DNA of 64,000 nt from a virus: positions 61,155-125,154 of the IMG/VR virus record IMGVR_UViG_3300027749_000051; one strand, given 5' to 3'. This document shows positions 7,157-54,988 of this stretch, in pieces (the stretch's first letter is position 1; each line of letters begins with the position of its first letter). A program made the position numbers and the translations under genes. The notes beneath the pieces were generated by a model. The model saw only the letters and a list, made by a program, of their open reading frames with translations, had not been told where the DNA came from and did not search any database.

Positions 7157-8650
7157 ATGATTTACTATATTTATAGTAAATCATTTTTTATGCTAAAAAC
7201 AATAGAATTAACTTTTAATATTGCAGGAAATGTTGGGAATTATTATAAAGAAAATAATATAGATATTAAATATAATAGTATTAATACTATACCAATTGAG
7301 AAAGTAAATCCTGATAGTCATTTAATGGTTGACGCCATTTGTGATGTTTGTGGTAAAGAGACTAAAGTACAATATAGAAGATATAATAAATCTATTAAAA
7401 ATGGGGGATATTACTCTTGTTCGTCTAAATGTGGAAAGAATAAGACAATAGAGACTAATATTGTTAAGTACGGGTCAAATTCATACTTTGAAAGTAATGA
7501 GTTTAAAGATAAATCAAAGAAAACATTTTTAACTAAATGGGGGGTAGATCATTTTAGACGAAGCGATCAATGGAAAGTTGAAAATAGTATTGCGGAAATT
7601 GAAAAACGAAAAAAAACAATATTTGATACATTTATCGGTGAAAATCCAAAAATTATTGGGCAAGATGGTGATAATTTTATAATTAGTTGTGAGATTCATG
7701 GGCAGTCAACAATACCTAAATCTATATTTGCAAATAGAAAAATAATTGGAACCGAATTTTGTACCATTTGTAAACCGATTGAATCTAATATTTCAGGAAA
7801 AGAAGTATTGTTGAAAAAGTTGATTTCTGAAATATATGATGGAAAAATTATTATTGGATATAAAATTGAACGAAAAGAAATTGATATCTTTTTACCTGAC
7901 ATTAATATTGGGTTTGAATTTAATGGGTTAAGATGGCACTCTGAATTATTTAAAGAAAAAGAATACCATATTAATAAGACTAATTTATGTAAATTGCATG
8001 GAATACGACTAATTCATATATTTGAAGATGATTTTGATTTTAAATTAGATATCGTTAAATCAATAATATCTAATGTTATTGGGAAAAGCGAAATAATTCC
8101 AGCAAGGAAAACAACAATTAAAAGAATAAATGAAAAGGATATTGTTAAAATATTTTTAAATGAAAATCATCTTCAAGGATTTGTTAACACGAATATTAAT
8201 TATGGGTTATATTATGACGGTGAATTAGTTAGTTTAATGACCTTCTCAAAATTAAGAAAAATTTTTAAAAATAAAATATTGGATAATAGTTATGAACTAG
8301 TGAGATTTTGTAATAAAATTGGTATCGGGGTTATAGGTGGGGCTTCAAAATTATTTAAGAATTTTTTAATTGAATATAATCCTAAAGATGTGATATCTTA
8401 TTGTGATATTTCTTGGGCGACTGGAGATTTGTATAAGAGATTAGGATTTGATTCTTTATGTATAACTCCACCAAATTATTATTATGTTATTAATAGAAAC
8501 CGAGAAAATAGAATAAAATATCAAAAACATAAATTGGTTAAACTCGGGTATGATGAAAATATGACCGAATCTAAAATTATGAATAGTAGGGGGTATTTTA
8601 GAATCTATAATTGTGGAAATGAGAAATACATTTATAAAAATACGAATTAA
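7157..8650 (+). mobile_element. Putative free-standing homing endonuclease (Zn ribbon + PD-(D/E)xK domain + C-terminal extension)
   Basis: CDVC, CTIC zinc motifs; EIDIFLPDINIGFEFNGLRWHS nuclease motif; lower GC than neighbours. Confidence 0.7.
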
Positions 8651-20978: not shown

Positions 20979-21962
20979 CTACTTCCAGTTAAAATTGTTT
21001 CCCATATGTCCCCACATTGCAGTTTCAGAGTATATTGGGTTTTTTAGGTCCAAATGTTTGATGATACCCTGTGGTGATAAATCGTATTTGTTTAATCCTA
21101 GTGGTAGTGTTGCGATGTTAAACTCAATACCATCAATTATTGATGTGGATTGTAAAGGTTGGTCATATCCGATTGCGTATGATAATTGGACAAATACTTC
21201 TTTTGCTGATGGATATGCTTTTAATAGATCTACAGCTACTTTACGAGCCATATATGCTGCACTTCTATCTACTTTTGTTGCGTCCTTACCACTAAATGCT
21301 CCTCCGCCAATCGGGATCCTTGGTCCATAGTTATCCACGGCAAGTTTTCTACCAGTAACACCAGCATCGGCGTCAAATCCGCCCATATTCCAATCACCAG
21401 CAGGATTACAATGTAGTGCCTCGATTCTATAACCTTCAGTTGAACAGAAATCTTTACATAAAGTTTCTAATTCTTCTTTTGGTGCGTTTTGGAAAGAACA
21501 CACTACTCTAACACTACGATTTTCTTGGTCTAATGTGATTTGTGTTTTACCATCGTAAGGGTATTGTTCGTATACCACTTTATTCAACTTTCTTGCCAGA
21601 TAATATTCTTGTGGTACTAACTCTTCATTCTCATTACATGCATAACCAATCATAATTCCTTGGTCACCAGCACCACCAACATCAACACCTTGAGCGATCT
21701 CAGGTGATTGTTTTACTAAGTTAATGATAACATCATCAACATTGGCGATTTCTTTAACGATCTCTCTAATTTTTTCATCTGAAATTTTGTATTCAGATGT
21801 TACTTCACCTGTGATGAATACTTTGGAGTGACCTCCACAGGTTTCAACGGCACATCTTGATTGTGGGTCGTTTTTTAAATGGTCATCCAAGATTGCGTCT
21901 GAGATTCTATCACAAAGCTTATCAGGATGTTTCGGGGATACAAATTCTGCTGTTCTAATCAT
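20979..21962 (-). CDS. metK: S-adenosylmethionine synthetase
   Basis: EFVSPKHPDKLCDRISDAILD, GAGDQG, DGKTQ, DAGVTGRKL, GGGAFSGKDATKVDRSAAY. Confidence 0.97.
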   Translation of the reverse strand: MIRTAEFVSPKHPDKLCDRISDAILDDHLKNDPQSRCAVETCGGHSKVFITGEVTSEYKISDEKIREIVKEIANVDDVIINLVKQSPEIAQGVDVGGAGDQGIMIGYACNENEELVPQEYYLARKLNKVVYEQYPYDGKTQITLDQENRSVRVVCSFQNAPKEELETLCKDFCSTEGYRIEALHCNPAGDWNMGGFDADAGVTGRKLAVDNYGPRIPIGGGAFSGKDATKVDRSAAYMARKVAVDLLKAYPSAKEVFVQLSYAIGYDQPLQSTSIIDGIEFNIATLPLGLNKYDLSPQGIIKHLDLKNPIYSETAMWGHMGNNFNWK

Positions 21963-22004
21963 ATCAATTTTATTTTATTTTATGTTCTATTTTTAAGTAT
22001 AATA

Positions 22005-22034
22005 AAAAAGGATGTCAAACTCAAGTTGACATCC
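22005..22034 (-). terminator. Intrinsic terminator after ahcY
   Basis: GGATGTCAA-loop-TTGACATCC followed by T run on minus strand. Confidence 0.75.
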
Positions 22035-22058
22035 TCTTAATATTTGTGTTAATTGTTA

Positions 22059-23468
22059 TTAATATCGATATTCGTCTTTTTTGTAAGGACCATTAACATC
22101 GACTCCAAGATATTCTGACTGATCTGGTGTTAAGGTTGTTAACTTGATTCCTAATTGACCAATATGTAATCTTGCCACTTCTTCATCCAAATGTTTTGGT
22201 AATGTGTGAACACCTACAGGGTAATCATTTGTCGCCAATTCAATTTGAGCTAAGACTTGGTTGGTGAATGAGGTACTCATTACAAAAGATGGGTGACCTG
22301 TTGCACACCCTAAGTTAACTAATCTACCTTCAGCCAATAGATAGATTGAGTGTCCATCTTCGAAAGTATATTTATCAACCTGTGGTTTGATATTTGTTCT
22401 GATAACAGTTTTATCAGAATGTAATTTTTCTACTTGGATCTCATTATCGAAATGTCCGATATTACAAACAATTGCCTCATCCTTCATTTGTGACATGTGT
22501 TCCAATGTAATAACATCTTTATTACCTGTTGTGGTTACATAGATATTACCAACAGATAATGAATCTTCAATTGTCTGTACTTGGAACCCTTCCATTGATG
22601 CTTGTAATGCGCAGATGGGGTCAATCTCAGTTATGATAACTCGTGCTCCATAACTCTTCATAGACTTCGCACATCCTTTGCCAACATCACCATATCCTGC
22701 AATTACAACAACTTTACCAGCGATCATAACATCTGTTGCTCGTTTGATTCCATCAGCAAGTGATTCACGACAACCATATAAGTTATCGAATTTGGATTTG
22801 GTTACAGAGTCATTAACATTAAATGCTGGGAACAATAGTTTATCGTTTTCATACATTTGATATAATCTATGTACACCTGTTGTTGTTTCTTCAGATACTC
22901 CAATAATTCCTTCAACCGCATTTTCCCATCGTTCATTGTTAGATGATAGAATTTCTTTTAGAATATGGTTAAACTCATATTCGTCTTCACCATTGGTTGG
23001 AAGATCTAAGATGTTTGGATCTTTTTCAGCATCATACCCACGATGGATCATTAATGTTGCGTCGCCACCATCATCAACAATTAAGTTTGGCCCTTCACCA
23101 TTAGGAAATTCCAATGCTTTAGCGGTACACCACCAATATTCTTCTAATGTTTCACCTTTCCATGCAAAAACAGGAATACCTGCTTCAGCAATGGCTGCGG
23201 CAGCATGATCTTGTGTTGAGAAAATATTACAACTACACCATCTAACATCTGCTCCAAGTTCTTTTAATGTTTCAATTAACACTGCAGTTTGGATTGTCAT
23301 ATGTAATGACCCAGTAATTTTGTGTCCTGATAAAGGTTTAGTTTTACCATATTTCTCACGAAGAGACATAAGTCCTGGCATTTCTTTTTCTGCAATCTTA
23401 ATTTCTTTTCTTCCGTATTCTGCAAGATTAATATCTGCTACGGCATAGTCTGTAAATTCCATATTCAT
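22059..23468 (-). CDS. ahcY: S-adenosylhomocysteine hydrolase
   Basis: [68 protein letters not shown]. Confidence 0.98.
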
Positions 23469-23581
23469 TTTATTATTTAATTTATTGTGTTGTTTATAAT
23501 ATATAATCGAACTTATGATTTTATTAAATAATTTAAAGAATAATTTAATAAAATAGTTGTATTTATAGATAAACTATATCT

Positions 23582-23764
23582 ATGAAAACATTAATAATTA
23601 TTGTGCTTATTATTGCAATTGTTGCTTTAATTAGCTTTGCTGTTTATGCGGTTCGAGATCATAAAGATGAGATATCCGATATTATTAAAGATGAAGAACG
23701 GATAGTTAAAATCGCAATTAAGGAAAAGATAAAGAATATATTTAAAAAAATCTTTAATAAGTAA
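23582..23764 (+). CDS. Small membrane protein
   Basis: N-terminal hydrophobic helix; TATTTATA at 23560; terminator at 23768. Confidence 0.7.
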   Translation: MKTLIIIVLIIAIVALISFAVYAVRDHKDEISDIIKDEERIVKIAIKEKIKNIFKKIFNK

Positions 23765-23767
23765 AAG

Positions 23768-23790
23768 AATCCCCACTTGGGGATTTTTTT
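23768..23790. terminator. Intrinsic terminator between convergent genes
   Basis: AATCCCC-ACTT-GGGGATT plus T run. Confidence 0.8.
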
Positions 23791-23793
23791 ATT

Positions 23794-24168
23794 TTATTGA
23801 TATTGTTCGTAACTCTTTTCTTCAGTTAAGTTAGACCCTGTCAATTCATTTATTTGTCGTTTGACTTCAGATCGTTTATCGTTAATGAAATAAACTGATC
23901 TTGCGGTTTGAATGAAATCGTCACCAAAATCTTTTGATCTTTCTAGATCTCTGATATGGTCTTCAATGTCCCATAGTTGATTGTTTATCTTATACAATTC
24001 TTGGTAAAGAGGGTGAGTCTTCTCAATGATTGTGGCTACTGCAGAGTCCAATATTAAAAACTCTTTTTGTAGGTTTGTTAGTTTATCTACATTTGAGATA
24101 CGACTAATTTTAATTTCTATAATAGATAGTTTATCTACTATTTCTCCGTTTGATACTTCAATATTCAT
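23794..24168 (-). CDS. DUF6165-like phage protein
   Basis: IEVSNGEIVDKLSIIEIK...LWDIEDHIR...ARSVYFINDKRS...IN...EEKSY. Confidence 0.8.
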   Translation of the reverse strand: MNIEVSNGEIVDKLSIIEIKISRISNVDKLTNLQKEFLILDSAVATIIEKTHPLYQELYKINNQLWDIEDHIRDLERSKDFGDDFIQTARSVYFINDKRSEVKRQINELTGSNLTEEKSYEQYQ

Positions 24169-24172
24169 TTTA

Positions 24173-24703
24173 CTATGTTTTAGATTTATGATTTAATATT
24201 TCTTCAACCTTATAATCTTCCCAACTGCCAGCATCTATAGTTTTTTCTACCTTATGATTAAGGACATCTTCTATATCAGTTTCAGGAAAATTAAATACAA
24301 CCACAGGTTTTTCTATTTTATAATCGAGGACATTATCTATGTTACGGTTATCTCTGCCTTGGAAAGATAAAGTTTTTTCTACCTTATGATTGAGGACATC
24401 TTCTACTTCCGATTCATCTATAATATTTCTATGTCGAGGTGTATCTACTTTATAATTAAGGATATCTTCTACAAAAGAGGATAGGATAGGTTCAAACTCA
24501 TTTCGTTCCATTGAAAATATGGTAAAAAAATCAGAGAAAAACCACCATCTCCAATACAAGATTCCTCGTTTTTTATATTCTAAATACCAATACTTATTTT
24601 CTCTGTCAATAATCCATATGGAGTCTTCATATGGAATTATCTCAGTATGTTTCAGATCATTATATAGTTTATCAAATATTATTTTCTTTAATCTGGGGTT
24701 CAT
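24173..24703 (-). CDS. Array-fused family protein, copy A (W/F-rich domain + 5 in-frame repeats)
   Basis: WIIDRENKYWY...LYWRWWFFSDFF domain followed by 22-aa-periodic VEDxLNxKV. Confidence 0.85.
   Translation of the reverse strand: MNPRLKKIIFDKLYNDLKHTEIIPYEDSIWIIDRENKYWYLEYKKRGILYWRWWFFSDFFTIFSMERNEFEPILSSFVEDILNYKVDTPRHRNIIDESEVEDVLNHKVEKTLSFQGRDNRNIDNVLDYKIEKPVVVFNFPETDIEDVLNHKVEKTIDAGSWEDYKVEEILNHKSKT
24174..24473 (-). CRISPR. CRISPR-like mini-array A inside CDS (5 degenerate 36-nt repeats, 4 spacers of 30 nt)
   Basis: Repeats at 24438-24473, 24372-24407, 24306-24341, 24240-24275, 24174-24209; exact 66-nt period. Confidence 0.55.
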
Positions 24704-24704
24704 T

Positions 24705-25254
24705 TTAATTAAGTATATTATCTACTTTAACAGGCCATGGGCAATAATCTGCTTTTGCTGTATTTACCTTATGATTCAGTACATCGTCCAATATTTTGTA
24801 GTTCTCAACCAATGATTTCATAGATGTTTCTCCATTATGGTTAAGTACATCTGCCGTCGGGTTTACGAATCCGCAATAACCGATCTTAGTTGCATCTACC
24901 TTATGATTAAGGATGTCTTCCTCTTTAGTGTAACCTGTTGTGTTTCGCCAAGTAGATATTGTTACTTTAGGGTTAAGGATGTCTTTCACCACTGGTGTTT
25001 GCGAATCGTTTGTAAAAAAGGATTTACTTACCTTATGATTAAGGATGTTTTCCACCTTAAGATGAGTAAGAAAATCTATACCATTAGATGTACTTACCTT
25101 ATGATTAAGGATGACTTCCACCGATGCGATGGCTGGACCAACACCAGTATCGGATGTGTTTACCTTATAATTAAGGATGTCTTCCACCAATGCAGAGAAA
25201 GCATTTGAAAGAAGAACAGATGTGCCTACCTTATGATTAAGGATGTCTTCCACC
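24705..25254 (-). CRISPR. CRISPR-like mini-array B inside CDS (8 repeats + partial, 8 spacers of 30 nt)
   Basis: Repeats start (+ strand) at 25219, 25153, 25087, 25021, 24955, 24889, 24823, 24757; first is GGTGGAAGACATCCTTAATCATAAGGTAGGCACATC in gene sense; degeneracy rises distally. Confidence 0.7.
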
Positions 25255-25484
25255 ATAGAAGTTAGAAATGGTTTATACTCATTTTGTTCCAATGAGAATA
25301 GTTGGAAAAAATTATTGAAAAACTCCCATCTCCACCATAATGTTCCTGATTTTTCAAATTCAAAATACCAGTACTTTTCTTTTCTATCAATAAACCATAT
25401 CGCATTATTATATGGGATTATCTCCACATGTTTCAGATCGTTATATAGTTTATCTAATATAATTTTTTTTAATCTCTCGTTCAT
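24705..25484 (-). CDS. Array-fused family protein, copy B (8 full + 1 partial repeats)
   Basis: Same N-terminal domain; 22-aa periodic tail to the stop codon. Confidence 0.85.
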   Translation of the reverse strand: MNERLKKIILDKLYNDLKHVEIIPYNNAIWFIDRKEKYWYFEFEKSGTLWWRWEFFNNFFQLFSLEQNEYKPFLTSMVEDILNHKVGTSVLLSNAFSALVEDILNYKVNTSDTGVGPAIASVEVILNHKVSTSNGIDFLTHLKVENILNHKVSKSFFTNDSQTPVVKDILNPKVTISTWRNTTGYTKEEDILNHKVDATKIGYCGFVNPTADVLNHNGETSMKSLVENYKILDDVLNHKVNTAKADYCPWPVKVDNILN

Positions 25485-25487
25485 AGT

Positions 25488-25955
25488 TTATATTTTATTT
25501 ACCTTACGATTTAAGATTCTTTCTACCAATCCTTCAGGTGGAACTTCATCAAAGAATGTTGTTTTTACCTTACGATTTAAGATGTCTTCCACCCAGCCTT
25601 TGGCTTTACCTATGAAATTATTTGATGTATCTACCTTACGATTTAAGATGTCTTCCACCGGGTCGATCGATTGATATTCCCCATTGAAAGATGTATCTAC
25701 CTTACGATTTAAGATGTCTTCCACCATATCTCGTATAAGTGGCTCATACTCATCTCGTTCCAATGAAAACAGGTAGAAAAAATTATTGAAAAACTCCCAT
25801 CTCCACCACAGAGTTCCATTTTTATTCAATTTAAAGTACCAGTATTTTTCATTTGGATCTATTGCCCATATATTGCCATCATCGACAATAATTTCGGAGC
25901 CCTTCATATCGTTCAAAAGTTTATCAAATATTATTTTCTTTATCCTGTCGTTCAT
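25488..25955 (-). CDS. Array-fused family protein, copy C (4 repeats)
   Basis: WAIDPNEKYWYF...GTLWWRWEFFNNFF; VEDILNRKV x3 plus VERILNRKV. Confidence 0.85.
   Translation of the reverse strand: MNDRIKKIIFDKLLNDMKGSEIIVDDGNIWAIDPNEKYWYFKLNKNGTLWWRWEFFNNFFYLFSLERDEYEPLIRDMVEDILNRKVDTSFNGEYQSIDPVEDILNRKVDTSNNFIGKAKGWVEDILNRKVKTTFFDEVPPEGLVERILNRKVNKI
25492..25725 (-). CRISPR. CRISPR-like mini-array C inside CDS (4 repeats, 3 spacers of 30 nt)
   Basis: GGTGGAAGACATCTTAAATCGTAAGGTAGATACATC identical at 25690-25725 and 25624-25659; variants at 25558-25593 and 25492-25527. Confidence 0.75.
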
Positions 25956-27952: not shown

Positions 27953-28114
27953 ATGAAGCATAGTTTTTGGAGGATATGGGCAAAATCATTAGGGGAGAAA
28001 ACAGGAGAGACCGATGAGGAAGCAGATAGAGTTGCGATGGTTAGAACAATAATCTTAATGGTATACATTATAACCAATTTAGTTATAATCGCAGGAATAA
28101 TTAGACACTGGTAA
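27953..28114 (+). CDS. 53-aa membrane protein of a myophage-type family
   Basis: Manual: MKHSFWRIWAKSLGEKTGETDEEADRVAMVRTIILMVYIITNLVIIAGIIRHW. Confidence 0.7.
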   Translation: MKHSFWRIWAKSLGEKTGETDEEADRVAMVRTIILMVYIITNLVIIAGIIRHW

Positions 28115-28143
28115 TTAACCCTCACCCAAAAGGTGGGGGTTAA

Positions 28144-28407
28144 TTATGAGATAACTTTAACTGGCAACTTATATCCTTTTTTGAACCAAGCGGATATAAC
28201 AATAAGGATTACATTATCAATGTAACCTTTTCCAAACTTCTTATTCAACTCGGACCTAACTATATCACTACAATACATTGTTGAGGTCTTAATATCAAAT
28301 AAGAAATACTCGTTATGCCAGGTCTGCTCAACCTTATCATAGTAAAGGTATGGGAACCCAAATTTATCATCTATGAATTTAACTATGTGTTTTTCTATTG
28401 TTGTCAT
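28144..28407 (-). CDS. Hypothetical protein
   Basis: 87-aa ORF ending at hairpin 28118-28140. Confidence 0.6.
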   Translation of the reverse strand: MTTIEKHIVKFIDDKFGFPYLYYDKVEQTWHNEYFLFDIKTSTMYCSDIVRSELNKKFGKGYIDNVILIVISAWFKKGYKLPVKVIS

Positions 28408-28434
28408 ATATACAAATATAATATATTTATTAAT

Positions 28435-28956
28435 ATGAACTTACAAGAAAACATACACAGGATTAAGGAAATGATGGGGATTAATGAAAAGCATGATCTC
28501 CTGAATAAACCTATCAAAGATATTATAGACCAAGTGGGAGGATATGGAACAGGATTCAACACCGATGAAGACGCCATAGAAGAAATAGAATATGTGGTAT
28601 CAAGTGATTTTCCTGAAGGTCTGAATAACATTCCAACTAAAGTAATCTTATATAGAGTTATATTATTGGAAGATGGTAAATCCATTAACGAGGATCAGGT
28701 TGGGGAACATTTCATTTCGGATACAAGACATATAGATAGATCGTTCTTGGAAAAGATAGATATATGGGACAATTGGGATGCGGACAATTCCAAGTTATGG
28801 TTACTACAATGTGAAACGGATGGGGATAATATAGATATAGAAAGAACATTAGGTAATAGAGTTCAATATCCTCGTGAGAATGAATTCACCCTGAAGAACG
28901 ATAAAAAGATTAGGTTGATAAAGAAAAAGATACTTAATAAAGAACAGCTTAGATGA
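28435..28956 (+). CDS. Putative ADP-ribosyltransferase-fold protein with MxLQENIxRIK leader
   Basis: LYRV...HFISD...RENEF resembles the R-S-E triad; start moved to ATG 28435 after TATTTAT. Confidence 0.45.
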   Translation: MNLQENIHRIKEMMGINEKHDLLNKPIKDIIDQVGGYGTGFNTDEDAIEEIEYVVSSDFPEGLNNIPTKVILYRVILLEDGKSINEDQVGEHFISDTRHIDRSFLEKIDIWDNWDADNSKLWLLQCETDGDNIDIERTLGNRVQYPRENEFTLKNDKKIRLIKKKILNKEQLR

Positions 28957-29483
28957 AATACATAATTACTGAGAGACAATATAGAGTGATATCCGAAGAA
29001 GTTAATCCTCGCATCAAAGAAATTATCTTCAATAAGTTATTGAATGATATGAAGGGTGTTGAGATTATTGAAGATAATGGTAGCATATGGGCAATAGATC
29101 CTGATGAGAAATACTGGTACTTTGAGTTGCAAGAAAACGGAACTTTATGGTGGAGATGGGGATTTTTCAATAATTTTTTCAAGTTATTTTCAATAGAAAG
29201 AAATGAGTTTGAACCACTTATGCGTGAACTGGTGGAAGACATCTTGAATCGCAAGGTAGTCACATCACTTCTAGTGCAATTCCTTGGTGACCTAATGGTG
29301 GAAGACATCTTGAATCGCAAGGTAGTCACATCCCACAGCGGACAGATTCACGTCCAAAGCCAGGTGGAAGACATCTTGAATCGCAAGGTAGTCACATCTA
29401 GTGGGCATGACCAAAGATTAACAATGTCAATAAAAGACATATTAAATCGTAGGAATAAGATAACCAAAGATGAGAACTTTTAA
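28953..29483 (+). CDS. Array-fused family protein, copy D (MKYIITE leader)
   Basis: Leader + W/F-rich domain + VEDILNRKVVTS x3. Confidence 0.9.
   Translation: MKYIITERQYRVISEEVNPRIKEIIFNKLLNDMKGVEIIEDNGSIWAIDPDEKYWYFELQENGTLWWRWGFFNNFFKLFSIERNEFEPLMRELVEDILNRKVVTSLLVQFLGDLMVEDILNRKVVTSHSGQIHVQSQVEDILNRKVVTSSGHDQRLTMSIKDILNRRNKITKDENF
29231..29464 (+). CRISPR. CRISPR-like mini-array D inside CDS (3 identical 36-nt repeats + degenerate terminal repeat, 3 spacers of 30 nt)
   Basis: GGTGGAAGACATCTTGAATCGCAAGGTAGTCACATC at 29231, 29297, 29363; degenerate copy at 29429. Confidence 0.8.
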
Positions 29484-29486
29484 GAT

Positions 29487-29804
29487 ATGAAACTACAAGA
29501 GAACATAGACAGAATTAAACAAGTGATGGGAGTTATCAATGAAGATAAACCATCAATCCATATTTTACGGAGATTACCTCAAATAGAGAGGGCATTAAAT
29601 CAGACATTATATTATTTATCTCCTTGTGAATATGATGATGTGGAATATTATACTGAACATGTATTACACCAACTTAGGGAATATTTTGAAGATTATGAAG
29701 AAGAAGAAGAGGTTGAACCTTTTGCGGCAACAAATTATGTTGCAGAATATTTATCATCTGAAATAGAAGAATATTACGATGACCGTAAAACAGAATGTGA
29801 ATAA
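29487..29804 (+). CDS. Acidic hypothetical protein with MKLQENIDRIKQVMG leader
   Basis: Leader identical to 29869 and 30581. Confidence 0.75.
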   Translation: MKLQENIDRIKQVMGVINEDKPSIHILRRLPQIERALNQTLYYLSPCEYDDVEYYTEHVLHQLREYFEDYEEEEEVEPFAATNYVAEYLSSEIEEYYDDRKTECE

Positions 29805-29868
29805 TAAAGAATATTCACTTAGACATAAACTATACAATATCAAATAAATCTATACAATATTTTTTATA

Positions 29869-30558
29869 ATGAAACTACAAGAGAATATAGATAGGATAAA
29901 ACAAGTGATGGGGATTATTACAGAATCACGACCAGGATTTTGTTTACCGAAAGATTATACTCCAGGAACAAAATATGGAAGGGATGAGTTAGCTAAGATG
30001 TTTGTATGTTTTACAAAAGATCCGAAGAAGTTTCCATTATTGGCGGTTAAGGAATGGTTATTTCCACAATTACCTGGTGGAGGATTTACGCCCCAAGATC
30101 CAATGAGTATGAGTTATGGTCAACCATATACTTTTACTATGGAAAGAATGGCAAAAGTAGAAGATAAAAATACAAGAAATATCACAGTCGGAATAAAAAC
30201 CATTGACCCAACTCAATTACCTGATGAAACAAAAAGATGGTTTAGTATAAAACAAAAATCTCCAGGATTTCAAGATAGATTTGACTATCAGATAAATAAG
30301 ATAAGGGAGAATGACTATGATACTACAGTTATAACACCTCAAGATGAGCCTATGGTTTTTGAGGTTATAAATAGAAAGTTATATATTCAAGAAGGGTGGC
30401 ATAGGTTAATGGCGATCTTAATGTTATTGGAGAAGGGGGAAATAATTCCTGATCAGGCTAAAGTATATGCTGTAACTGTATTTAGATCTCCCGATTTTAA
30501 GTTAAAAATAGTGGATAAACCAGAAGGCCTTTTTGAAAACATAAGAAATTACCAATAA
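29869..30558 (+). CDS. ParB/sulfiredoxin-like domain protein with leader
   Basis: EPMVFEV...LYIQEGWHRLMA resembles the ParB-N DGHHR motif. Confidence 0.55.
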   Translation: MKLQENIDRIKQVMGIITESRPGFCLPKDYTPGTKYGRDELAKMFVCFTKDPKKFPLLAVKEWLFPQLPGGGFTPQDPMSMSYGQPYTFTMERMAKVEDKNTRNITVGIKTIDPTQLPDETKRWFSIKQKSPGFQDRFDYQINKIRENDYDTTVITPQDEPMVFEVINRKLYIQEGWHRLMAILMLLEKGEIIPDQAKVYAVTVFRSPDFKLKIVDKPEGLFENIRNYQ

Positions 30559-30580
30559 TAACCAAGATAGATTTATAACA

Positions 30581-31060
30581 ATGAAACTACAAGAGAATAT
30601 AGATAGGATAAAACAAGTGATGGGGATTAATGAAACCTTTGACGCAGGGGTGGAACCAACTCTTAGAGACACCTATAACGAAGATGGGGCAAAAGTATAT
30701 TCATACATCCTTCCGTCAAAGAAAGATGAAAAAGATTACATCATCAACTTAAAGTTCTATAAGGAGTTTAAGGACCCGAAAATCAAAGATACATATAAAG
30801 ATGTTATGGTAATAGATTTTAATCTTGGGGCAGGGACTTATTACAATACCAACCTTAATGAAGTATTTTATATCTTTGCTTCAATCAATAAACTTATAGA
30901 GAAGTATAAGAAGAAGTTCCAATATCTTATGGGTTATTCAAACAAAGATAGATTGTCCTTATATAAGAAAGCATTGTCAAGAGCAAATTATTTGGAACTG
31001 GTAGATGAGGGATCACATCATATCATATATAAGAACAAAGATTATTCACGATGGTTCTAA
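30581..31060 (+). CDS. Hypothetical protein with leader
   Basis: MKLQENIDRIKQVMGINE leader. Confidence 0.75.
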   Translation: MKLQENIDRIKQVMGINETFDAGVEPTLRDTYNEDGAKVYSYILPSKKDEKDYIINLKFYKEFKDPKIKDTYKDVMVIDFNLGAGTYYNTNLNEVFYIFASINKLIEKYKKKFQYLMGYSNKDRLSLYKKALSRANYLELVDEGSHHIIYKNKDYSRWF

Positions 31061-31070
31061 ACCATACAAG

Positions 31071-31097
31071 ACCTCACCTAATAAGTGGGGTTTTTTT
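31071..31097 (+). terminator. Intrinsic terminator of the repeated ACCYCA...GTGGGGTTTT family
   Basis: AAGACCTCACCTAATAAGTGGGG (23 nt) is identical at 31068 and 34612. Confidence 0.85.
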
Positions 31098-31604: not shown

Positions 31605-31676
31605 TAGTTCTTTACCTCACCATAACGGTGGGGTTTTTTTATTGATTAAAATTGATTAATTTTTATATTATGAAAT

Positions 31677-38544: not shown

Positions 38545-38696
38545 AATGAATATTGTTTATATGTAAGTATGGTTATAAATGGGGGATATGTAAATAATAT
38601 TTATTATATTTGTGGGGGACATATCATATGCCGGAATCGTGAAATGATCCCCAACCCCTTTTATTTATTTTGAATATTTATATATAAAATAAAACT

Positions 38697-39592: not shown

Positions 39593-39965
39593 GGTATAAC
39601 TAATAAATAGGTCTGATAAACATAGACCTATACAAATGTAGTATTGTGTATAATGATTGGGGGACATATCATATGCCGGCATTGGAAATAATTCCCAACC
39701 CCTTTTTGTGGTTATGTCTTAATTGTCAAATTATCCCTTTACTTATTTAGGATGTCAGTGTGTTGTCTAAGGTTTCAGAATGTGACCTTAGAGAATATAA
39801 GGTTGGGGGAATTAATATTTTGATGTATATAAAATAACCTCAACATTGTTTGTCGTTCATATTATTGGAAATGTGATTATCAAAATGATTGGGGGATGTG
39901 TTGTATGCCGGAATCAAAAATAATCCCCAACCCCTTTTTTCTTGGGTATAGATATATTTATCAAT

Positions 39966-40675: not shown

Positions 40676-40761
40676 ATTTTTATTTATAAATATAGGTTAT
40701 ATGCCGGCATTGGAAATAATCCCCCACCCCTTTTTGCTGATGTTGAGTATTTATATGTAAT

Positions 40762-41142
40762 ATGAAATACATAATTACCGAAAATCAATATAGACTGATT
40801 AATGAAGAGGTTAGCCCTCGCCTGAAAGATTTTATTTTTAATAAGTTATTGGAAGATATGAAGGGAGCCGAACTTATTGAAGATAAATTTAGCACCATAT
40901 GGGCAATTGATCCTGACGAGAAGTACTGGTACTTTGTATTGCTAAAAGATGGTACTTTATGGTGGAGACCGGACTTTTTCCATAATTTCTTTAGGTTGTT
41001 TTCATTGGGACAAAAAGAATTTGAGCCACTTATACGAGATATGGTGGGAGACATCTTAAATCGCAAGGTAGGTAAATCAGGCGCTTTTGAATCCTTGCAT
41101 CCTCTTCAGGTGGGAGACATCTTAAATCGCAATAAGAAATGA
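40762..41142 (+). CDS. Array-fused family protein, copy E (leader, 2 repeats)
   Basis: MKYIITENQY leader, W/F-rich domain, VGDILNRK x2. Confidence 0.88.
   Translation: MKYIITENQYRLINEEVSPRLKDFIFNKLLEDMKGAELIEDKFSTIWAIDPDEKYWYFVLLKDGTLWWRPDFFHNFFRLFSLGQKEFEPLIRDMVGDILNRKVGKSGAFESLHPLQVGDILNRNKK
41043..41132 (+). CRISPR. CRISPR-like repeat-spacer-partial repeat E inside CDS
   Basis: GGTGGGAGACATCTTAAATCGCAAGGTAGGTAAATC (41043-41078), 30-nt spacer, 24-nt identical truncated repeat (41109-41132). Confidence 0.6.
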
Positions 41143-41414
41143 AATACATTATCACTGAAGACCAAAAAATAACACTTATGAATAAAAGTGATTGGAAAGA
41201 AGACAACAATAAACTTGCCAAAACATATTATTTTAAAAATTATAAAGAAGTTATGCCATTTGTTAATCAGGTAATGAAAATTGCAGATAAACAAAATCAT
41301 CATCCTGATATGACCGTTCATTATGATAATGTGAAATTATCTATTACTGACCACGATAAGGGTGGAGTATCCGAAAAATGTTTTAAATTTACCAATGCTG
41401 TTGATAAAATCTAA
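41139..41414 (+). CDS. phhB: Pterin-4-alpha-carbinolamine dehydratase with MKYIITE leader
   Basis: DW...LAKTYYFKNY...FVNQV...ADKQNHHPD...ITDHDKGGVSEK. Confidence 0.85.
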   Translation: MKYIITEDQKITLMNKSDWKEDNNKLAKTYYFKNYKEVMPFVNQVMKIADKQNHHPDMTVHYDNVKLSITDHDKGGVSEKCFKFTNAVDKI

Positions 41415-44051: not shown

Positions 44052-44915
44052 ATGAAATACATTATAACCAAAGACCAATATAGATTGATTAATGAAGAGG
44101 TTAATCCAAGATTGAAGGAGATTATCTTCAAGAAGCTATTAAATGATCTGAAGGATGTTGAAATTATTGAAGATCCTGAAAATGGAGATATATGGGCCAT
44201 TGATCCTGAAAAAAAATATTGGTATTTTCAATTGAAAAAAAGCGGACTTTTATGGTGGAGATGGGATTTTTTCAATAATTTTTTCAGGGTGTTTTCAATG
44301 GAACAAAAACAATATGAACCACTTATAAGATCTATGGTGGAAGACCTATTAAATCGTAAGGTAGTCACATCTGTTAAGACAGGTGCTAAAGAGGTTGAGG
44401 TGGTGGAAGACCTATTAAATCGTAAGGTAGGCACATCTGATGGACGTAATTCTGTTCTTAAGGCTAAGGTGGAAGACCTATTAAATCGTAAGGTAGGCAC
44501 ATCCTATTTTAAATGGTCCAATAATGATGATCTGGTGGAAGACCTATTAAATCGTAAGGTAGGATCATCACTTAAAGAAGATTTGGCGGTATGGTTTGGA
44601 ACAAAGAAAAAACCAAAAGGTAGCAAACAACCTGCAGGACCTTGGGTTAATATATGTCGTAAAGATAAAGACGGAAAACATCCTCCTTGTGGTAGATCTG
44701 AAGCAAGTGATAAGGGATATCCAAAATGTCGTGCGGCTGGTGTTGCAGGTAAGATGAGCGACTCAGAAAAAAAATCGGCTTGTCAACAAAAAAGAAAAGC
44801 AGAAAAATCACATTCTAAATCAGGAACTGGAAACAAACCTAAGATGACTCATTATGAACCAAAAAATGAGCAATTACATCCTATTATTAGAAGATCAATA
44901 AGAGAATCTCTTTAA
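44052..44915 (+). CDS. Array-fused family protein, copy F, with extra Cys/Lys-rich C-terminal domain
   Basis: Leader + domain + VEDLLNRKV x4, then WFG...GPWVNIC...HPPCGR...YPKCR domain. Confidence 0.88.
   Translation: MKYIITKDQYRLINEEVNPRLKEIIFKKLLNDLKDVEIIEDPENGDIWAIDPEKKYWYFQLKKSGLLWWRWDFFNNFFRVFSMEQKQYEPLIRSMVEDLLNRKVVTSVKTGAKEVEVVEDLLNRKVGTSDGRNSVLKAKVEDLLNRKVGTSYFKWSNNDDLVEDLLNRKVGSSLKEDLAVWFGTKKKPKGSKQPAGPWVNICRKDKDGKHPPCGRSEASDKGYPKCRAAGVAGKMSDSEKKSACQQKRKAEKSHSKSGTGNKPKMTHYEPKNEQLHPIIRRSIRESL
44336..44569 (+). CRISPR. CRISPR-like mini-array F inside CDS (4 repeats, 3 spacers of 30 nt)
   Basis: GGTGGAAGACCTATTAAATCGTAAGGTAG(T/G)CACATC at 44336, 44402, 44468; variant ending GGATCATC at 44534. 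Confidence 0.8.
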
Positions 44916-45443: not shown

Positions 45444-45456
45444 TCCAATTTAGTTA

Positions 45457-45485
45457 AAACCCCTCCCCATAAAGGTGGGGTTTTT
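45457..45485 (+). terminator. Intrinsic terminator (shared CCCTCCCCATAAAGG core)
   Basis: Near-identical hairpins at 45457, 46326 and 48104. Confidence 0.8.
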
Positions 45486-45510
45486 ATATAACAAAGTAAT
45501 TATATATAAG

Positions 45511-46326
45511 ATGAATAAAAGTTATAGTAAGATAAAACATATACAAGAGGTTAATCAAAAATTGGAAAAAATGTTTTTGATTGAGCAATCTGCAATATCA
45601 ACACCTCCCACAAGTATAACAAAACAAACGCAACCTTATGCTGGTAGTGATAGAGTTGCATCTATGGCCGCCAACCAAAAACAATTAAACCAACAAACTA
45701 TAGATATTAATACTTGGAAAGCCAAAGATGGTAAAACTACCTTTGATCAAGTAATGGAAAAATTCCGTGAAGGATTATATTCTGATACAGGAATTGCTAT
45801 TGAGCTTATTTTGGATTTTACAGGATTTGCGGCGCCTGCGGTTATTACCGCATTTGGAACCATGTTTGCATATGACGTATATCTTGCAACAGAAAAAGGA
45901 AATGTTAATTATCTTAATCTTATTGCAGATTTATTAGGAATTGTTTCTAGCGGAGCGATTTCTAAATTTTTATCACCAATCGTAAAAAGTGGAAAATCAT
46001 TTGCGAGAATTGAGGAGGCCATTGCATATATAAAATCGTCATCTGTAGGGGCAAAGATTCTTCCATATTTGAAAATGATTGAAACATCTATTGGAGTTAT
46101 TGGATCATGGATATCAAAAGGAATTACATGGATTGTGGAGAATACAAATATTAAAATGTTTAAATCTATTGAACCAAAAATTACTTCATTTTTTAGTGAC
46201 TTATCATCAGGTTTGGTAAAACAAGTTAAAGGAGAAGTTGAATGGCGTGTCAATAAAACTCCAACTGAATATTCTCACGAATTGTCTAAGGAAACACCCC
46301 TTACCCCAAATACGTCTCCCTCATAA
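45511..46326 (+). CDS. Hypothetical protein with MNKSYSKI leader and hydrophobic hairpin
   Basis: Leader shared with 50342; start moved to ATG 45511. Confidence 0.75.
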   Translation: MNKSYSKIKHIQEVNQKLEKMFLIEQSAISTPPTSITKQTQPYAGSDRVASMAANQKQLNQQTIDINTWKAKDGKTTFDQVMEKFREGLYSDTGIAIELILDFTGFAAPAVITAFGTMFAYDVYLATEKGNVNYLNLIADLLGIVSSGAISKFLSPIVKSGKSFARIEEAIAYIKSSSVGAKILPYLKMIETSIGVIGSWISKGITWIVENTNIKMFKSIEPKITSFFSDLSSGLVKQVKGEVEWRVNKTPTEYSHELSKETPLTPNTSPS

Positions 46327-46360
46327 AAACCCCTCCCCATAAAGGAGGGTTTTTTATGCG

Positions 46361-46912: not shown

Positions 46913-47026
46913 AACACAAATGTATAAAATATCAATGAAATAAAAAAATTATTTATGATATATTTTATGACGGCATCCAAATTAATCTTCAGCCCCTTTT
47001 GTGTATCTTGAGTATTTATATGTAAT

Positions 47027-52918: not shown

Positions 52919-52924
52919 AATCTT

Positions 52925-52953
52925 AAACCCCTCCCTAATAAGAGGGGTTTTTT
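52925..52953 (+). terminator. Intrinsic terminator
   Basis: AAACCCCTC-loop-GAGGGGTTT plus T run. Confidence 0.85.
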
Positions 52954-52984
52954 ATTTCCCATATATTTATAATGATATACTTTA

Positions 52985-53629
52985 ATGAAATCAATTCAAA
53001 TAACCGAATCACAACTTAATAATCTTGTTAAGGAAATCTTATCAGAAGATGTTAATCCAAAACTTGCAAAGATCGCAATGGGTAAGCTCTATGATGACAT
53101 TAAAGATGCCGAGGTTATTCCATATAGAAGTTCCGTTTGGATTATTGATAGAAAGAATAAGTATTGGTATATCGAATATAGAGATGGTGGAGCAATGTAT
53201 TGGAGACGGGATTTCTTCCAAGATTTTTTCAATATGTTCTCAATGAAGGATAAGGATTTTGAGCCTCTTTTAGTCACCATGATGGAAGATATTTTAAATA
53301 ATTATAAAGACATTTTAAAAAATATTGAGAAACCAGAATATACATCAGTAGAAGATGACCTCCGAAAAAATAATGGGGACACATTTATTTCACCCACATC
53401 TTTAGGGTATAACACAGGTTATGAAGATATCCCCAATCAGAAGGTAAAATCATCAGATCCATCATATAATAGAGAAACTCATACGGTGGGGAGCATTCTG
53501 AAAAATAATACAACCTCACCAAAAACAGATGTGGAAGATGTTCTAAAACATAAAGTAAAAACCCCAATGCCAGGATTTTTATCCTCAACTAATCCTTTGG
53601 ATAAAGTCCTAAAATCAACAGAACAATGA
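52985..53629 (+). CDS. Array-fused family protein, copy G (decayed repeats)
   Basis: Domain WIIDRKNKYWY...YWRRDFFQDFF; repeat relics at 53281, 53347, 53419, 53485, 53530, 53596 (spacing 66, 72, 66, 45, 66). Confidence 0.8.
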   Translation: MKSIQITESQLNNLVKEILSEDVNPKLAKIAMGKLYDDIKDAEVIPYRSSVWIIDRKNKYWYIEYRDGGAMYWRRDFFQDFFNMFSMKDKDFEPLLVTMMEDILNNYKDILKNIEKPEYTSVEDDLRKNNGDTFISPTSLGYNTGYEDIPNQKVKSSDPSYNRETHTVGSILKNNTTSPKTDVEDVLKHKVKTPMPGFLSSTNPLDKVLKSTEQ

Positions 53630-54252: not shown

Positions 54253-54608
54253 AATACATTATAACCAAAGGACAACTACATAAAATTGCTTATCAACTAT
54301 TGGATGATCAGTTAAAGAATAATGGTGGATTTGAAGAAAACGAAGATTATGGTAATCATCGTTTTTCATTAGAAGATAAGAATGGAGATAGAATAATATC
54401 GGCAATCCATTATTCTGAAGAAAATGGAAGAGGAGAGACTCATGCATTTATTGGATGGAGGCTTATTCACACGATGTCTAAATTATTTTCAATTCGTCCA
54501 ACAAAAGCCGTTGATATTATTGGAGATTGGTTAAGTGAAACATTAAATCTTGAGATAGATGAGATTGATTTTGACAACACACATAAACCAGATAGTGACG
54601 ATTATTAA
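54249..54608 (+). CDS. Hypothetical protein with MKYIIT leader
   Basis: 119-aa ORF. Confidence 0.75.
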   Translation: MKYIITKGQLHKIAYQLLDDQLKNNGGFEENEDYGNHRFSLEDKNGDRIISAIHYSEENGRGETHAFIGWRLIHTMSKLFSIRPTKAVDIIGDWLSETLNLEIDEIDFDNTHKPDSDDY

Positions 54609-54988
54609 TGAAATACATTATAACTGAAAAACAACACCATCAGATTAGCGATAGAATAATTGATATTGCAATGGATAAACTTTATGATGATCTTAAAGTC
54701 GTAAAAATTATCCCATATCGCGGAGATGTCTGGTTTATTGACCCGAATACAAAAGAATGGTATTTTAAATATGGGCAAGATGAGGATGGAAGAAATGGAG
54801 TCTTAACCTATAGAGCAGACATTTTTGAAAACTTTTTCAGGATATTCTCAATGATGTTATCAGATTATGAACCCCTCTTAATTGATTTGGTTTTTAATGT
54901 GGTTGAAGAACCAATAGTGGATGTCCAAATTAGTAGATCAAACAAATCCCAAGAAGTTAATGATGTTCTTGACTCAATTAAGAAATAA
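54608..54988 (+). CDS. Array-fused family protein, copy H (domain only, no clear repeats)
   Basis: KLYDDLK...IIPY...WFIDPNTKEWYF...FENFFRIFSM...YEPLL. Confidence 0.75.
   Translation: MKYIITEKQHHQISDRIIDIAMDKLYDDLKVVKIIPYRGDVWFIDPNTKEWYFKYGQDEDGRNGVLTYRADIFENFFRIFSMMLSDYEPLLIDLVFNVVEEPIVDVQISRSNKSQEVNDVLDSIKK

Follow-up and report, generated by a model that had tools for sequence, protein, structure and literature searches.

A Cas-less CRISPR-type array in frame within a jumbo phage gene, probably extended by host-supplied spacer capture

Array B, a tract of nine 36-nt repeats and eight mutually unrelated 30-nt spacers in the genome of an uncultured lake jumbo phage, is likely to be a CRISPR-type array without Cas genes that sits inside a phage gene, is extended by Cas1-Cas2-like capture (probably supplied by the host) and is filtered for translatability. 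CRISPR arrays are generally regarded as the non-coding memory banks of cells, and to our knowledge those carried by phages have been described only as non-coding loci or as mini-arrays. Array B is coding sequence: it makes up the 3′ half of a gene and is in frame with it. Its CRISPR-like polarity is supported by large samples of homologous arrays, by a strain-level insertion at the growth junction and by a host-derived spacer in array B itself.

The window, meaning the whole 64,000-nt stretch of DNA analysed here, comes from a 125-kb virus record (∼42% complete, 32% GC) with eight paralogues of the array gene. Gene B is an uninterrupted open reading frame (ORF) on the minus strand. Residues 1–77 of its protein form an N-terminal domain; from residue 78 the chain consists of units of exactly 22 residues, each a 12-aa core of the type VEDILNHKVxTS followed by 10 aa that differ in every unit. 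Eight units are full, and a ninth repeat is truncated by the stop codon. The array lies within 24705–25254, and the exact 66-nt period over eight spacers claimed in a first-pass annotation of this DNA is borne out by the layout of 36-nt repeats and 30-nt spacers. The features of the locus, in the order in which they are read, are:

24705–25484, minus strand: gene B, a 259-aa ORF made up of the N-terminal domain and the in-frame array
25254–25484, minus strand: N-terminal domain, residues 1–77, in leader position; its last base, G (25254), abuts repeat 1
25218–25253, minus strand: repeat 1, the reference copy
25188–25217, minus strand: spacer 1, the youngest by position
25152–25187, minus strand: repeat 2, 33/36 identical to repeat 1
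25122–25151, minus strand: spacer 2, by sequence match (29/30) an antisense copy of a bacterial nuoL segment
24726–25121, minus strand: repeats 3–8 and spacers 3–8, alternating with a period of 66 nt; repeat identity 32, 31, 28, 29, 24 and 25 of 36
24705–24725, minus strand: terminal truncated repeat (six codons) and stop codon, with no repeat DNA beyond the stop

The other paralogues in the window are:

24173–24703, minus strand: paralogue A, domain and 4–5 decayed units; translationally abuts B
25488–25955, minus strand: paralogue C, domain, three units and a terminal repeat
28953–29483, plus strand: paralogue D, three identical repeats and three unrelated spacers
40762–41142, plus strand: paralogue E, a single spacer
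44052–44915, plus strand: paralogue F, three spacers followed by a tail of ∼110 aa rich in Lys and Cys
52985–53629, plus strand: distant paralogue with a decayed array
54608–54988, plus strand: distant paralogue, domain kept, array nearly gone

Genes A, B and C abut with spacings of 1–3 nt, so that a premature stop in one would uncouple downstream translation. The cluster has DUF6165, S-adenosylhomocysteine hydrolase (AdoHcyase) and S-adenosylmethionine (SAM) synthetase genes as neighbours; these lie directly downstream on the same strand (20979–24168, minus) and form a phage-borne methyl-cycle module. The Lys/Cys-rich tail of F (44580–44915, plus strand, ∼110 aa) recurs at the end of P0004, a 420-aa protein in which one domain-plus-array module directly follows another; the array family thus also exists in fused and duplicated form.

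Several further repeated elements were noted in the window. Unrelated small genes starting at 41139, 41421, 44052, 53626, 54249 and 54608 have the same first 7–9 residues (MKYIITE.Q type); they include three array genes and a pterin-4a-carbinolamine dehydratase gene (41139–41411), and have in common either an N-terminal tag or a 5′ DNA element. A second small-gene family has a common start region of ∼74 nt (28410–28483, 29462–29535, 29844–29917 and 30556–30629; repeat families D9 and D16), and one of its members begins 4 nt after the end of array gene D. An intergenic element of ∼56 nt occurs in five copies (38607–38662, 39652–39707, 39884–39939, 40680–40735 and 46946–47001; families D10 and D12), with G-rich and C-rich arms around ATATGCCGGCAT; AT-rich DNA comes next, conserved and located upstream of genes, and the element may act in regulation or as a promoter-terminator module. 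Nine or more hairpins, GC-rich and with similar stems, each followed by a T-run (family D8; among them 28114–28145, 31066–31097, 31609–31640, 45456–45487, 46326–46357 and 52924–52955), are probably intrinsic terminators punctuating the strings of small genes. A large HNH or homing endonuclease gene lies at 7157–8650 on the plus strand (phrog_3339, E 2e-103).

The array gene belongs to a family of 246 homologues (90% clustering, word-indexed search), all from metagenomes and uncultured phages, on contigs of up to 295 kb; a full HMM search yields 665 clusters at 50% identity. By tblastn the family is absent from cultured phages. Forty-five IMG/VR loci carry it, often as four or five tandem copies, and complete genomes hold domain-only relatives without arrays. 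The spacing of the repeats is nearly invariant: in ∼120 homologues, 444 of 454 repeat-to-repeat steps measure 22 aa. One lineage (the arrays of L010–L012, L014–L016 and L019–L021) has a frame-preserving 6-nt insertion in one repeat, giving a 14-residue core; the register is moved by two residues, and the adjoining spacers are still 30 nt. No family or fold match to the N-terminal domain was found with Pfam, Foldseek, VIA-align or the ESM Atlas. AlphaFold2 predicts residues 1–83 with a pLDDT of 82–92, the last helix of the domain taking in the first core.

Such a gene could encode an ordinary hypervariable tandem-repeat protein, its 22-residue units shuffled, lost and gained through recombination in the constant repeat DNA, among at least eight paralogues and among co-infecting phages; CRISPR machinery would play no part, and the likeness to CRISPR would be coincidental. 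The crowding of array paralogues, up to five in tandem per 20 kb, favours this explanation, which the prediction of the array part as disordered (pLDDT 30–40) argues against. We rate it as very unlikely on the evidence that follows.

In array B, repeats 1–8 are identical to repeat 1 at 36, 33, 32, 31, 28, 29, 24 and 25 of 36 positions, and identity falls with rank (Spearman rho −0.95, p 3e-4, with repeat 1 as reference). The first-pass annotation had described domain-proximal repeats as near consensus and distal ones as decayed; this holds over repeats 1–8, and the residue strings it quoted are correct, as is its remark that in arrays C, D and F the last repeat is the most divergent. A 27-nt pattern drawn from the repeat has 23 matches in the 64-kb window versus 0.01 expected from shuffles.

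The same annotation read this decay as leader-end, CRISPR-like growth, and homologous loci agree. In samples of roughly 120–170 homologous arrays, identity of the core to the array's own consensus, by rank from the domain, is 0.96, 0.94, 0.89, 0.81, 0.75, 0.62 and 0.48; at the DNA level the repeats decay with rank, the trend being negative in 50 of 52 arrays. The fraction of spacers seen in one protein only runs 0.59, 0.42, 0.37, 0.25, 0.26 and 0.12 over ranks 1–6. A metagenome scan with one young spacer found five sister arrays and nothing else. In 253 pairs of arrays with two or more spacers in common, the spacers not shared are proximal in 757 cases, internal in 257 and distal in 312, and the order of shared spacers is consistent in 748 comparisons versus 42 inverted (95% collinear).

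Growth at the junction can be seen between strains. Locus L102 has a single 66-nt unit that L101 lacks, inserted exactly where the last domain codon meets the old repeat 1, and the remaining ORF is ∼99% identical; the inserted unit is a copy of repeat 1, including its private variant, and a new 30-nt spacer with no other occurrence in IMG/VR. Together with two more such differences it makes three of five independent single-unit cases at rank 1, which are the proximal insertions that the first-pass annotation had proposed to look for. Variation of other kinds, including an internal duplication such as it named as counter-evidence, is present too: some differences are internal or distal, sister arrays show an internal replacement, and in one family a distal spacer has an internal duplicate. 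Recombination and loss or deletion thus act beside polar addition. The internal replacements, the order inversions (42/790) and the duplicated spacer count in favour of a recombining tandem-repeat protein. Recombination, however, makes no new 30-nt sequences, and the spacers are either near-identical or unrelated: 355 of 570 are distinct, and their pairwise distances are bimodal (at most three or at least six differences in 10), so that new spacers are not diverged copies of old ones. The spacer inserted in L102, found nowhere else in IMG/VR, likewise speaks against reshuffling of existing units. Constant repeat and spacer lengths (36 and 30 nt) with polar growth by duplication of the first repeat at the leader end are the properties of a CRISPR array.

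The suggestion that the 3′ end of the conserved domain serves as the leader stands for position and is not supported by the sequence. The domain abuts the growth junction. Synonymous variation in its last ten codons is of the ordinary kind, with nothing but the final G fixed; a sequence-specific leader was rejected, there being no extra synonymous constraint before the junction. The 20-mer that had been pointed out before repeat 1 in C and E is there (25726–25745, minus strand, and 41023–41042, plus strand, directly before repeat 1 in both) and is as expected where close paralogues code for identical residues.

A bacterial chromosome is, judged by sequence, the source of at least one insert. 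In array B, spacer 2 (25122–25151) is identical at 29 of 30 positions to nuoL in two genomes of Chitinophagaceae-like bacteria (G906 and G1195; E 3e-9 to 7e-7 per genome); the ends of the match are the spacer boundaries, and the flanks are unrelated. It matches nuoL in at least 25 of 301 genomes of one Bacteroidota family at 88–97%. The source gene encodes NADH-quinone oxidoreductase subunit L by Pfam, and the closest named relative of the G906 protein, at 92–95% identity, is from Lacibacter sp. (Chitinophagaceae). The sense strand of array B is antisense to nuoL. A bacterial gene copy with exact boundaries is hard to obtain by recombining the units of a phage protein. A Bacteroidota host is indicated by this source near Lacibacter and by the phage AdoHcyase, 76–79% identical to Bacteroidota enzymes.

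Two further antisense candidates are borderline: a 27-nt run matching rpmF straddles a spacer/repeat boundary, and a match of 25–26/30 to a transporter gene is within the range of chance; neither was accepted as a proven source. The other spacers had no match in the sequences searched. None matched phage DNA beyond shuffled controls in ∼1.5 Mb (including 830 kb of loci and three phage genomes), none matched cultured phages, and four young spacers had no match in IMG/VR. When the 27 spacers of L009 were searched against 400 Flavobacteriaceae, the sole hit was low-complexity DNA and was rejected. At 0.42, spacer GC exceeds both that of the phage (0.32) and that of stop-free random 30-mers drawn from it (0.334), which favours a foreign origin; an apparent fall of spacer GC with age disappeared once spacers were properly bounded.

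The frame is kept open throughout. The spacers have no stops in the coding frame, versus 0.37–0.89 stops per spacer in the other five frames, and the frame is open in all but one of ∼100 arrays. In the exception, L031 (3776–4252), one spacer contains a TAA, beyond which the terminal repeat is still in register; this array, the only one seen with an in-frame stop, looks recently broken. Save for L031, no array repeats occur beyond the stop codon in the ∼100 arrays. A crude dN/dS-like ratio, from small counts, is 0.44–0.58 for spacers versus 0.36 for the folded domain. These values disallow a claim that spacers are neutral and, being not far above the domain, leave a protein-level role of the cassettes possible. 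Both the nearly always open frame and the room that this ratio leaves for peptide-level selection would suit a hypervariable tandem-repeat protein.

The layout of the gene brings to mind peptide precursors as well. In cyanobactin and prochlorosin precursors, too, the N-terminal part is conserved and the flanks are constant, with hypervariable cassettes of one length between them, and hypervariable cassette proteins and multi-core precursors in general combine DNA-constant flanks with unrelated fixed-length cassettes and many paralogues per genome. The arrays could accordingly be multi-core precursors of ribosomally made, post-translationally modified peptides (RiPPs), with 10-residue cores, a 12-residue recognition sequence and a leader domain. 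Yet no maturase-like neighbour was found, no cassette position is conserved except the final G, which is a DNA-level feature, and in composition the cassettes agree better with translated random DNA (r 0.80) than with the phage proteome (r 0.69). An antisense nuoL cassette is also hard to square with a selected peptide. Unlike such precursors and cassette proteins, the arrays show polar insertion with target duplication, at least one foreign cassette and no linked modifying enzyme, and we regard a RiPP origin as highly improbable.

Constraint on the repeat acts at the DNA level: synonymous sites are fixed against the phage's codon bias. At their positions in the repeat GTG is used at 88–94%, AAG at 96%, GAA at 94–99% and ACA at 99–100%; in all, GTG, GAA, GAG, AAT, AAG and ACA are used at 88–100%, and four other third positions are free. 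In the window's own genes GTG makes up 13% of Val codons and AAG 28% of Lys codons, and G stands at 13.5% of third positions. Of 164 distinct spacers, 91% have G as their last base, itself a wobble position, which limits the last spacer residue to amino acids encoded by NNG.

The fixed sites resemble those of type VI-B CRISPR repeats. Reference repeats were those of Flavobacterium columnare, F. covae and F. branchiophilum (PMC5395568 Table 4; L056 and L057). Phage repeats match these at 18–23 of 36 positions in register, versus 9.3 ± 2.6 for shuffles (p ≤ 1e-4 for most phage repeats, ≤ 2e-3 for repeat 1 of array B). Among the third-codon positions 10 of 12 match, including all six that are fixed at ≥0.9; wobble positions fixed against codon bias and in agreement with VI-B repeats count against a coincidental likeness in a tandem-repeat protein. 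The 3′ block of the phage repeat is near-identical to VI-B in many variants. Overall it is only 50–64% identical to known VI-B repeats, and its 5′ end is GGTG, not GTTG. In the phage frame, real VI-B repeats have stop codons, so that the phage repeat looks like a stop-free recoding. Its predicted fold has the VI-B layout of an end stem and a central hairpin but is weaker (−4 to −9 kcal/mol, z not significant). The phage repeats match no CRISPR direct-repeat family in Rfam, and a search with one bridging pattern found no closer repeat in any bacterial genome among 185,579 species. Recognition of the phage repeat by any host Cas protein is putative.

Searches of five related phage records, of which two are 100% complete, gave no cas1, cas2 or reverse transcriptase (RVT_1) gene, and in the part of the proteins of two phage genomes that was scanned none of eight ORFs of 930–1213 aa matches a Cas effector model. 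The capture might instead be the work of an unrecognised phage-encoded integrase or recombinase with the repeat as its site. This would fit a repeat identical to no known host repeat, whose 12-nt 5′ block, AAGGT block and ACAAC block are kept across very divergent phage lineages, and it would fit the fact that most genes adjoining arrays have no known function. Against it, no integrase, recombinase, nuclease or other enzyme family consistently adjoins the arrays, the phage records searched hold no Cas1, Cas2 or reverse transcriptase, and we know of a 36-nt target duplication around a 30-nt insert only for Cas1-Cas2. We give a phage-encoded enzyme little credence.

Targeted hypermutation, by a diversity-generating retroelement or similar, would vary spacers in place, and the confinement of variability to defined 30-nt segments at the 3′ end of the gene is what it would produce. 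It is already contradicted and almost certainly wrong: the five records hold no reverse transcriptase, differences between spacers are all-or-none, neither graded nor adenine-specific, and units are inserted, not rewritten.

The closest known system is the type VI-B (Cas13b) array of F. columnare/covae, which is filled in trans by a type II-C Cas1-Cas2 module (Hoikkala et al. 2021, PMC8092290). Its new spacers are 28–32 bp, mostly 30, and derive in part from phage and in part from the host chromosome (PMC8092290). The phage arrays are like it in their 36-nt repeats and 30-nt spacers, in having no adaptation genes of their own, in transcription from leader to array with additions at the leader end, in the host-chromosome spacer of array B, and in the shared repeat positions (18–23/36) and end-stem and central-hairpin layout. 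The indicated host, from the AdoHcyase relatives and the nuoL source near Lacibacter, falls within Bacteroidota, where type VI-B occurs. Unlike the F. columnare array they are phage-borne, lie in frame in a gene for a protein, contain no stops in repeats or spacers, have no cas13b nearby, a GGTG 5′ end and a weaker hairpin, and occur as a gene family with up to eight arrays per phage genome.

Cas-less arrays in phages have precedents. Huge phages carry compact arrays without Cas1, Cas2 or Cas4 and often without effectors, with a median of six repeats; some spacers match presumed host bacteria, and use of host Cas proteins or an RNA-interference-like action has been proposed (Al-Shayeb et al. 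2020, PMC7162821). Array B is likewise a Cas-less array in a large phage with a spacer matching the putative host bacterium. In that account the arrays are non-coding loci with host-like repeats, whereas the present one is translated; the paper has nothing on in-frame translated arrays, a protein domain in leader position or selection against stops. Viral mini-arrays and solitary repeat units, or RNA anti-CRISPRs (Racrs), lack cas genes; their repeats imitate the CRISPR repeats of the host and are able to load its effectors or block them (Camara-Wilpert et al. 2023, PMC10651486; review PMC11656645). Mini-arrays have one or two spacers against related viruses and host-identical repeats, and Racrs are non-coding single repeats (PMC10651486, PMC11656645). 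The phage arrays share with them virus-borne CRISPR-type repeats without cas genes; they differ in that they can have as many as ten spacers, still grow at one end, have no match in related phages and are translated. No account of translated CRISPR-type arrays was found in the literature on Cas-less phage arrays, mini-arrays and RNA anti-CRISPRs. For the combination of growth at one end, a 30-nt bacterial gene copy and retained protein readability we found no published description in the papers searched.

The reading that we prefer is Cas1-Cas2-like capture filtered for translatability. The array grows by one 66-nt unit at a time at the domain junction, each addition consisting of a duplicated repeat 1 and a new 30-nt insert, and older units are pushed towards the stop codon, decaying as they go. 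The inserts would be written during infection by the Cas1-Cas2 integrase of the Bacteroidota host, on the model of the type II-C module that acts in trans on the Cas-less VI-B array of F. columnare. Selection would then retain only stop-free inserts of exactly 30 nt; from a range like that of F. columnare (28–32 bp, mostly 30) a frame filter would leave only the 30-nt class. The likely reason for such a filter would be the tightly packed, translationally coupled strings of genes, or a protein tail that matters. The repeat is held at the DNA level to a VI-B-like sequence, recoded free of stops.

What the arrays do for the phage is a matter of graded guesses. Tentatively, the mRNA may give crRNA-like units to a host effector of the Cas13b type, as decoys or as guides against host mRNAs. 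Somewhat doubtful is a role as a sink for host spacer integration, or the arrays may be a tolerated by-product of it. That the peptide cassettes serve to vary a disordered protein tail seems unlikely. A bolder proposal, to our mind probably wrong, is that the phage purposely uses the host adaptation module to write pieces of the host chromosome into translated genes, obtaining antisense guide-like units and new cassettes at once. The stored antisense pieces would be nuoL firmly, with rpmF and the transporter gene as weak candidates; the units would act through a host Cas13b-type effector or by direct antisense silencing of host mRNAs, and each capture would also add a 10-residue cassette to a phage protein. 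If true, this would be a heritable, phage-side adaptive record of its hosts.

The family (665 clusters at 50% identity) combines growth in CRISPR fashion, storage of host DNA and a protein reading frame that is held open. If it is host Cas1-Cas2 that writes the arrays, the adaptation machinery routinely edits phage genomes, DNA capture is a route to new peptide sequence, and the genomes of these phages are a readable log of their hosts, useful for assigning hosts to uncultured jumbo phages. If the units load Cas13b, they would represent a new strategy of counter-defence or host takeover, directed at the one CRISPR type to which jumbo phages are known to be exposed.
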